From NCBI RefSeq assembly GCF_003334385.1, contig NZ_QOWN01000150.1: 695 bases of DNA, one strand, 5' to 3'. Below the pieces are notes generated by a model. The model did no database searches, was not told the origin of the DNA, and saw only the letters and a list, made by a program, of their open reading frames with translations. Below are positions 1 to 695 of the stretch, in pieces; position 1 is the stretch's first letter; each line of letters opens with the position of its first letter. The position numbers and the translations under genes were made by a program. The DNA is from Escherichia coli (GTDB taxonomy: Bacteria > Pseudomonadota > Gammaproteobacteria > Enterobacterales > Enterobacteriaceae).

Positions 1-30
1 CGACAGGCCGTATCTGATTTTTGCGTTCAT
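1..30 (-). CDS. 5' end (first 10 codons) of a putative prophage endolysin, GH24 lysozyme, RrrQ/YdfQ-like; gene continues beyond the left window edge
   Basis: Seen in sequence: minus-strand ATG at complement of 28..30 followed by AAC GCA AAA ATC AGA TAC GGC CTG TCG = M-N-A-K-I-R-Y-G-L-S, open to the window edge. Established knowledge, recalled from memory and not searched: the E. coli K-12 Qin prophage lysozyme RrrQ begins MNAKIRYGLSAAVLA.... Caveats: only 30 bp visible, and no Shine-Dalgarno motif within 15 nt upstream on the minus strand. Confidence 0.35.
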   Translation of the reverse strand, partial: MNAKIRYGLS

Positions 31-51
31 GGATATTTATCAGGATTTATC
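31..51 (+). repeat. Tandem direct repeat GGAT(AT)TTATC (31..41 and 43..51) in the divergent intergenic region; a third GGATAT copy lies at 66..71; possible protein-binding or operator-like site
   Basis: Seen in sequence: GGATATTTATC at 31..41 and GGATTTATC at 43..51, spaced about one helical turn apart; GGATAT recurs at 66..71. They lie immediately upstream of the putative lysozyme ATG (read on the minus strand as GATAAAT repeats) and upstream of the plus-strand small ORF. No confident match to a known operator consensus. Confidence 0.25.
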
Positions 52-91
52 GGTTCCGAATCCCTGGATATGTTAAGTCTTCAGCCCGCCA

Positions 92-331
92 GTGGTGGGC
101 ACTGGCGTAAACTCAACAATGCGAGATGGCTGCCTCGCAAAGATAATCAAAGCAATGGATGCACTAAGTAAAAATAACGCTGTGTCAGATTACCTGATCG
201 CCGAAATGGAACATCTAATTAAAGAAATACCAAAGACAGTTGCTCGTGATGATAAAAGATTCCTCAAGGCTGCTGAAGATGCTCTTTCAACAGTGAAGCG
301 CAGCTTAGATGCGCCGCGCGATCAAGAATAG
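92..331 (+). CDS. Hypothetical small protein (79 aa from GTG at 92, or 70 aa from ATG at 119); possible moron-like ORF; could be a chance antisense ORF
   Basis: Seen in sequence: open frame bounded by in-frame TAA at 74..76 upstream and TAG at 329..331. Candidate starts are GTG 92 and ATG 119, neither preceded by a recognisable Shine-Dalgarno motif. The predicted peptide is helical and charged (rich in A/K/L/D/E), with no signal peptide or transmembrane segment. Codons include ATA x2, CTA x2, AGA, CGA. The last 68 bp (264..331) overlap the 3' end of the minus-strand CDS, so one of the two readings in that segment may be non-coding. Hand-counted GC of 121..240 is about 40%, below the window average. 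Confidence 0.3.
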   Translation: MVGTGVNSTMRDGCLAKIIKAMDALSKNNAVSDYLIAEMEHLIKEIPKTVARDDKRFLKAAEDALSTVKRSLDAPRDQE

Positions 332-695
332 TTTCTTTCATTTCATCTGCTGCAAGCACCTCATTTTTTGTTGGGATGCTTTTTTTCAATTCAGCGATAT
401 AGCACTCCAGTTTTTCAATGCGTGATTCAATATCATCGTTTTCTGACCGCAATGCCGTCGGTGGCGTCTTCAGAGAACCAGTAATTATTCCCGGTAGTTT
501 TCCTCTGTAGGTTATCAACACATCCTGCGCCTCTAAAATTATGGGGCGCTTTTCCGGCGACTGCTCATCCCCTTCACATAAAGCGGCAGCAATATCCATG
601 AAAAACTGCTTCGCCTGTTTTTTCGCCTCAGCTTCGTAAAACTCCAGCGTGGCACCTTCAGTACGGTCAAGACTAATCGCCACATATGGCAACAA
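264..695 (-). CDS. Hypothetical protein, 5'-partial (N-terminus lies beyond the right window edge); predicted compact N-terminal region followed by a charged helical, possibly coiled-coil, C-terminus; function unknown
   Basis: Seen in sequence: uninterrupted minus-strand reading frame of 143 sense codons from the window edge (695) to TGA (complement of 264..266). The first codon TTG at 693..695 is probably a window-edge artefact, not the true start. The only internal ATG (complement of 597..599) has no Shine-Dalgarno-like purine run upstream. Amino-acid composition is protein-like, with a heptad-like charged stretch DDIESRIEKLECYIAELKK. Codon usage resembles horizontally acquired enterobacterial genes (ATA x3, CTA x2, AGA). 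No transmembrane-like stretch, so it is not a holin. No family recognised from memory. Confidence 0.7.
   Translation of the reverse strand: MLPYVAISLDRTEGATLEFYEAEAKKQAKQFFMDIAAALCEGDEQSPEKRPIILEAQDVLITYRGKLPGIITGSLKTPPTALRSENDDIESRIEKLECYIAELKKSIPTKNEVLAADEMKETILDRAAHLSCASLLKEHLQQP

Follow-up and report, generated by a model that had tools for sequence, protein, structure and literature searches.

The window, by which we mean the whole stretch of 695 nucleotides analysed here, belongs to a lambdoid (Stx-phage-like) prophage of Escherichia coli and can be aligned to E. coli chromosomes, in the reverse orientation, with identities reaching 100%. At locus L001 the minus-strand gene order is holin S, YdfR-family gene, endolysin R and Rz, and it is the junction between the second and third of these that the window spans (Table 1). 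The start of R, read from 30 to 1, is part of the flanking late operon and lies outside the cassette described below. On the plus strand, between R and the ydfR-like gene, is the small ORF with which this analysis is concerned. A preliminary description of the locus had singled it out as an ORF of 70-79 aa opposite in strand to its neighbors, and this is confirmed, both neighbors being minus-strand genes. Its placement between the upstream gene and the endolysin needs qualification: the ORF is indeed flanked by the ydfR-like gene and R, but its last 68 nt (264..331) overlap the minus-strand ORF. Likewise, of the lower GC content of about 40% that had been noted, only a core (139..263, 35.2%) can be recovered, whereas positions 92..331 as a whole, at 44.6%, do not differ appreciably from the window at 44.9%.

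Table 1. Features of the window (positions counted from its first nucleotide)
Feature	Position	Strand	Details
Endolysin R gene, 5' end	1..30	-	ATG is the complement of 28-30; translation MNAKIRYGLS...; lysozyme WP_001537093.1 annotated at L001 3497..4030
Promoter-like element	66..74	+	GG at 66-67, -10-like hexamer TATGTT at 69-74; predicted transcription start ~81-83
Structured 5' leader, intact	81..138	+	P1, TCAGCC 81-86/GGCTG 128-132; P2, 87-94/100-107, loop GTGGG; P3, GCGAG 121-125/CTCGC 134-138
Cassette extent	83..451	+	Cassette-less Stx2a_1447 joins window 1-82 directly to ~452 onward
Reported ORF	92..331	+	GTG start, 79 aa; in-frame ATG119 gives 70 aa; stop at 329-331
Deletion junction	139..147	+	One copy of 9-bp repeat CAAAGATAA; window aligned with strain G1/2
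ydfR-like late gene	264..695	-	Continues past the window end at 695; 453-695 YdfR-homologous; 264-452 is a tail, antisense of the 3' part of the cassette
Intrinsic terminator	354..386	+	Hairpin 354-381, T-run 380-386; G->A at 376

The length of the ORF is in itself no evidence of coding, as one of at least 79 aa is present in 45% of 2000 dinucleotide shuffles of the window; it is homology, together with the pattern of substitution in relatives, that raises it above chance. A search against phrog_18136 gave E 5.4e-41 and 140 bits, with the match confined to positions 18-87 of the 87 in the profile. Positions 140-328 of the window are the residual codons 29-91 of a gene of this family, and they specify residues 17-79 of the ORF, identical to those of the allele in E. 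coli strain G1/2. The first 16 codons (92..139), on the other hand, have no homology to coding sequence anywhere and correspond to 5' untranslated leader in every intact relative.

Comparison with strain G1/2 explains this composite structure. There the locus is 100 bp longer and carries a 91-aa ORF (L002 3156..3431, NZ_CP060083 2950405-2950680, annotated by PGAP as WP_021565043.1), the ATG of which lies seven bases past AAGGA, the Shine-Dalgarno sequence seen in the 91-aa allele. Intact alleles have two copies of CAAAGATAA 100 bp apart, flanking the Shine-Dalgarno sequence, the ATG and codons 1-28, where the window has one; in the alignment, a single copy of the repeat in place of two is what a deletion between short direct repeats leaves behind. 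As 100 is not a multiple of three, the nucleotides at 92-139 that are now read in frame are unrelated to the protein, and by chance the deletion has put the leader in frame with codon 29, giving rise to an apparent ORF of 70-79 aa. The uninterrupted junction was found in 16 of 5426 complete E. coli genomes, in none of which does PGAP annotate a gene beneath it, and the truncated allele in 5 of 20 IMG/VR loci; among sequenced strains, JNEC-KY176 (NZ_AP045172 2398407-2399101) has it. The intact form, annotated as 'hypothetical protein', was present in 10 genomes in the junction search and in 12 in a separate search. The truncated frame is still open and shows no disabling change beyond the deletion. 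Truncated alleles hardly differ from each other, and relaxed selection is not readable from their sequences. Other alleles vary in different ways. One group (L010 1430-1693 and L021-L025) has a compensated double frameshift near the C terminus, by which KRSSGAQLIQE replaces KRSLDAPQDQE and the frame is restored for the final two codons and the stop. In another (L007 2997-3273, also L006 and L008), an extra T in a T-run at about codon 12 is accompanied by a GTG start four bases past the usual ATG, such that the first 10 residues differ (VKKITKKIQRF...).

The family from which the remnant derives is found in Escherichia and Citrobacter genomes. Intact alleles encode 85-91 aa, are annotated by PGAP and appear in RefSeq as 'hypothetical protein' (WP_021565043.1, WP_001001501.1 and WP_024246813.1), and the intact protein matches phrog_18136 over its full length (E 4.2e-52). 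Citrobacter, a metagenome and phage CharmingMan yielded relatives at 66-70% identity, and more distant ones, at 29-53%, were recovered from a search of 1.8 billion representative proteins. All homologs keep the nearly invariant N-terminal motif LFxRIFTLELxVGF and a C-terminal helix with the pattern A..AL..VKRS. The preliminary description had proposed conservation with synonymous-dominated substitutions as a check, and intact relatives behave in just this way: dN/dS in the plus frame is 0.08-0.3 (Nei-Gojobori), with a strong excess of third-position changes (the Citrobacter and metagenome copies differ at 12, 9 and 36 sites at codon positions 1, 2 and 3, respectively). In the 66 nt of overlap with the minus-strand ORF, dN/dS is 0.09-0.39 in the plus frame and 0.95-2.1 in the minus frame. 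Judged by these substitutions, the plus-strand gene is the selected one of the two and is a real gene, not a chance ORF. The gene is conserved where an intact minus-strand ORF is absent, and in every context examined, of which there are at least seven different ones, it lies antisense to the surrounding phage late genes. These contexts include positions upstream of three types of holin, between the lysis genes and terminase, and beside a methyltransferase or a glycosyltransferase.

It had also been allowed that the ORF might have arisen by chance, and one could equally see in it a shadow ORF cast by the ydfR-like gene on the other strand, one that has never been coding on the plus strand. The frequency with which ORFs of this length appear in shuffled sequence and the 68-nt overlap are both what such an origin would predict, but a match to a PHROG profile of the strength given above, the low dN/dS in the plus frame, the conservation of that frame and not its antisense partner within the overlap, and the persistence of the gene across contexts are not. 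Homology, substitution, overlap and context data together already refute it, and we consider its probability to be close to negligible. The preliminary description had further held that disruption of the frame in homologous loci, with the minus-strand gene conserved, would count against a gene here. This applies in part, in that the window allele turns out to be the frame-disrupted one.

For the intact protein, AlphaFold (13 sequences, pLDDT 78.9) predicts a three-helix bundle with helices at residues 3-37, 42-60 and 67-84; with only 9 close sequences as input the model was poor (pLDDT 64) and was not used. The deletion takes out most of the first of these helices. The protein is acidic (pI 5.2), and the earlier view of the product as helical and charged agrees with the prediction. 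Searches for named relatives gave little: in Pfam nothing fell below E 0.01, there was no match in NCBIfam, the best hit of a sequence profile against the PDB was not significant (E 0.9), and Foldseek returned no fold match in either the PDB or BFVD (best E 1.4 and 0.76, respectively). Matches to PADLOC models (E 0.005-0.013) were weak and were rejected as not credible. No published description of the gene was found in the literature.

The minus-strand partner in the overlap deserves comment. PGAP labels the ydfR-like ORF a YdfR-family pseudogene 'missing C-terminus', and homology to YdfR stops at window position 453. The ORF is a fusion: its last 62 codons come from the strand antisense to the cassette, and in the overlap they show no conservation at the protein level. 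The tail (264-452) is read-through into cassette antisense, which is consistent with the PGAP label and with the end of homology at 453. A frameshift in L009 and stop codons in L005 disrupt the minus-frame tail, and the plus-strand ORF is intact in both. Beyond the plus-strand stop (window 332-436) dN/dS of the minus-strand tail is 0.15-0.98, a range derived from few sites. For YdfR of K-12 itself, a 2026 paper (PMC13232886) reports binding to the catalytic half of RNase E and co-purification with RNA.

Opposite-strand genes of this kind in late operons had led to the suggestion that the ORF is a moron, a concept described in PMC2629481 and reviewed in PMC3594210. On comparison of related prophages the moron interpretation holds for the gene family: there is presence or absence, orientation, low core GC, a -10-like box and a terminator to support it, although that the copy in the window is broken had gone unnoticed. 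At the same position the cassette is absent from Stx2a_1447 and the K-12 Qin prophage and is replaced in PhiR5_1 and Stx2-86. Intact alleles have their own terminator in the form of a hairpin and T-run after the stop codon, the stem of which changes in a compensatory manner from AGCACC/GGTGCT in E. coli to AGCGTC/GACGCT in Citrobacter, and also in metagenome copies. A terminator scan called this element in the intact allele (L002 3454..3481) and not in the window, in which the G->A substitution at 376, private to the window strain among 18 alleles compared, lowers predicted stability from -15.5 to -8.8 kcal/mol.

The slot that separates R from the ydfR-like gene (window 31-452; L003 3031-3402, L012 1531-1982, L014 1531-1580, L163 10055-10058) is itself variable. 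Alternatives to the present cassette are a plus-strand phrog_2572 'DUF1823' gene in PhiR5_1/PhiR63_1 and the 104-aa gp06 of Stx2-86. In Stx2a_1447 the slot is reduced to a 50-nt scar in which only the -10 region is kept, and in K-12 Qin it is empty, with ydfR overlapping rrrQ. The edges of the cassette resemble each other, with AGCCCGCCAGTGGTG on the left (window 83-97) and ATGCCGTCGGTGGCG on the right (452-466), and at the cassette-less joint is the hybrid-looking AGGCCAGCGGTGGAG (L014 ~1582-1596). These similar edge sequences suggest that the cassette may be gained and lost by recombination between short repeats. The resemblance to the lambdoid morons (bor and lom of lambda, gene 15 of HK97) lies in an extra unit within a late operon that is present, absent or replaced in relatives and that has its own base composition, promoter-like element and terminator, independent transcription being only predicted in the present case. 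In sequence the gene is unrelated to either bor or lom, and whereas bor encodes a lipoprotein, the product of the cassette gene looks to be a cytoplasmic helical protein. The cassette also adds to the classical description of a moron a conserved structured leader that is common to many unrelated cargo genes.

That leader is intact in the window. In intact copies of the cassette its order is a TAnnnT box after GG, then TCAGCC, a variable hairpin (P2), GAGGGATGGCTGATTACCTC and the Shine-Dalgarno site. P1 comes from the complementarity of this upstream TCAGCC to GGCTGA within GAGGGATGGCTGATTACCTC, and P3 from the GAGG and CCTC that GAGGGATGGCTGATTACCTC also contains, which can pair with each other. 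Among 111 distinct leaders anchored on TCAGCC, positions -12, -11 and -7 are T, A and T at frequencies of 0.87, 0.97 and 0.87, and positions -15 and -14 are G at 0.77 and 0.84. A generic sigma-70 scan of the window, which demands a -35 box, did not call the element, and it has no -35 box. The conserved -10-like box of this putative promoter stands at a fixed distance from TCAGCC, and from that spacing the transcript is predicted to start at the 5' strand of P1. About 100 nt 5' of the ATG are conserved even where protein identity falls to 29%. A covariance model trained on a set of 98 leaders from which the E. coli type was absent matched window 71..157 on the plus strand over the full model length (38.8 bits, E 7.5e-9). 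Rfam gave no match at gathering thresholds in the window or in the leaders of L002, L004, L005 and L007, and none overlapping the L062 leader at E<=10. In the G1/2 allele the 3' arm of P2 has A where the window has G (L002 3103, equivalent to window 104; CACTAGCG), which creates a C-A mismatch; the stem in the window is perfect.

The structure of the leader bears directly on the reported start codons. GTG92 is inside the P2 stem and ATG119 is in the leader, abutting P3, and a Shine-Dalgarno sequence precedes neither. The weak ribosome-binding context that had been remarked upon has its cause in this, namely that both codons are leader sequence and not start codons. Two states are predicted for the folded leader, one in which P1 is formed and CCUC is paired to the Shine-Dalgarno site, and another in which P3 is formed and the Shine-Dalgarno site is free. 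In these modelled folds the leader would act as a translation switch, its anti-Shine-Dalgarno-like ACCUC pairing either with the upstream GAGG or with the true Shine-Dalgarno sequence. Control of translation by sequestering the Shine-Dalgarno site is known from RNA thermometers of the ROSE and fourU types and from the lambda cIII leader. The likeness to these is that ACCUC can mask the Shine-Dalgarno site in the predicted alternative folds; the cassette leader, however, matches no Rfam family by sequence or by model, and its switching is only inferred.

The leader is by no means restricted to this gene. In IMG/VR there are at least 120 exact occurrences of the 19-mer GAGGGATGGCTGWTKACCT (loci L043-L162), and in species-representative genomes there are 45 (loci L164-L208), of which about 39 are in Enterobacterales, with genera that include Xenorhabdus, Pantoea, Erwinia, Enterobacter, Citrobacter and Pectobacterium, and about 6 are chance-like occurrences in unrelated phyla. 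Among the matches listed, 115 of 121 sites are followed at 8-31 nt by the start of a complete ORF, 49-211 aa in length and in nearly all cases 63-99 aa; in a separate listing the spacing is 13-22 nt. At 74 of 85 scored sites the closest long ORF on either side runs on the opposite strand. The leader-linked ORFs, from across Enterobacterales, fall into at least 27 BLAST clusters of 63-211 aa products, and every PHROG that they match is labelled 'unknown function'. The idea of a single superfamily for all of them was rejected, as HHalign relates only one other cluster to the present family (95.9%) and one more marginally. Of the 8 pairs in P2, 7 show double compensatory changes, and pairing over all cells is 93.5%; values this high were reached in 0 of 500 shuffles, and pairing in slid controls was 27-50%. 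The U-G pair found in 47 sequences assigns the structure to the plus-strand RNA. For P1 and P3, the bases in the 98-leader set are fixed by the search pattern, and only C->U changes that keep G-U pairs are seen.

In E. coli the canonical leader is uncommon (108 of 5426 genomes by blastn). The slot alternatives described above retain parts of it, with a leader variant in front of Stx2-86 gp06 (32.8 bits) and only P2 kept before the plus-strand gene of PhiR5_1. The K-12 Qin prophage has neither leader nor cassette, and hence no named K-12 gene offers a route into the literature, in which no published description of the leader element was found. A conserved 3' end common to unrelated cassettes was looked for and not found, and a clear hairpin with a T-run is present in only 30 of 94. 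A hairpin, GCGGCCTGTWTCTGGGCCGC, does recur 3' of unrelated leader-linked ORFs (e.g. L044, L063, L069 and L159), often without a clear T-run. Just 5' of the leader at L062 is a minus-strand hairpin with a T-run (2074-2147; AGCCGC..GCGGCTTTTTT), and an inverted repeat, CAGGGT...ACCCTG, overlaps the -10-like box. A candidate isrK on the opposite strand at L062 was dismissed, scoring 15.6 bits against a gathering score of 50.

From these observations a history of the window copy can be proposed. The intact unit would have been autonomous and antisense within the late operon, with a -10-type promoter, a leader of about 75 nt, a Shine-Dalgarno sequence and ATG, the ORF and a terminator. The 100-bp deletion between the CAAAGATAA repeats then eliminated the Shine-Dalgarno sequence together with the ATG and the first 28 codons, and as the putative promoter and the leader were kept, the remnant may still give rise to a non-coding RNA, antisense over the junction of the ydfR tail and R. 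What is left does not extend to the full length of phrog_18136, the N-terminal LFxRIFTLELxVGF helix being absent, and has no start codon with a ribosome-binding site outside the leader structure; translation has probably been lost. We conclude, with a probability of roughly 0.8, that the window copy is a truncated remnant of a moron gene, most probably not functional, and is best regarded as a pseudogene.

Two other outcomes of the deletion have to be weighed against this. The shortened ORF might still be translated from ATG119 or GTG92 and work as a smaller, two-helix protein. In keeping with this, the deletion has not closed the frame although its length is not divisible by three, residues 17-79 are unchanged from the intact allele, the truncated form has spread over 16 complete E. 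coli genomes and 5 viral contigs, and a 79-aa product has been called in some public collections (P0019-P0023). Against it stand the lack of a Shine-Dalgarno sequence before either start, the location of GTG92 in a conserved hairpin stem and of ATG119 in a conserved leader, the absence of the family's best-conserved motif and of the greater part of helix 1, and the fact that PGAP never annotates the allele; on this evidence continued translation appears improbable. It is also conceivable that coding has been lost and that the unit of promoter, leader and terminator makes an RNA of some 300 nt, antisense to the late transcript, which damps leaky expression of the lysis genes in the lysogen. The full retention of the -10-like box and leader, the complementarity of such a transcript to late mRNA just upstream of R, and the convergence of leader-family units with late genes (at the 74 of 85 scored sites among the matches listed) would all fit, but the terminator is weakened in the window strain, and selection in intact copies is on the protein, such that any role for the RNA would be secondary. 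A regulatory function of this sort is unlikely, though it would be compatible with a pseudogene. The preferred reading, that of a truncated and probably untranslated remnant, has a practical consequence: the 79-aa product is not worth annotating or studying, and attention is better given to intact 91-aa alleles such as that of strain G1/2.

What the intact protein does can be addressed only tentatively. Its antisense orientation, putative promoter and small, acidic, helical character, together with the company it keeps, lead us to guess at a binding protein expressed in the lysogen, its translation gated by the leader, that takes part in phage-phage or phage-host conflict or in the control of lysis, a role that we hold to be possible and yet somewhat doubtful.

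The leader may prove to be of wider importance than the gene. Window positions 62-138 and their counterparts, an element of about 95 nt that combines the -10 box, a 5'-terminal TCAGCC, the covarying hairpin and GAGGGATGGCTGATTACCTC, could constitute an undescribed cis-acting module, that is, a portable promoter and leader driving, and probably gating, dozens of unrelated small genes that lie antisense in the late regions of Enterobacterales prophages. To this proposal we would give even odds. The dead gene of the window would then be one decayed cargo of the leader system. A comparison may be made with the gene cassettes of integrons, in which many unrelated small ORFs are likewise associated with one conserved, structure-bearing flanking element. 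Here, however, the element is upstream and resembles a promoter and 5' UTR, not a recombination site, and it comes with no associated integrase and no conserved 3' end that could be found. If the leader is a regulatory RNA, it would represent a common control point for a large pool of uncharacterized prophage genes and would provide a simple sequence handle by which such genes may be located.
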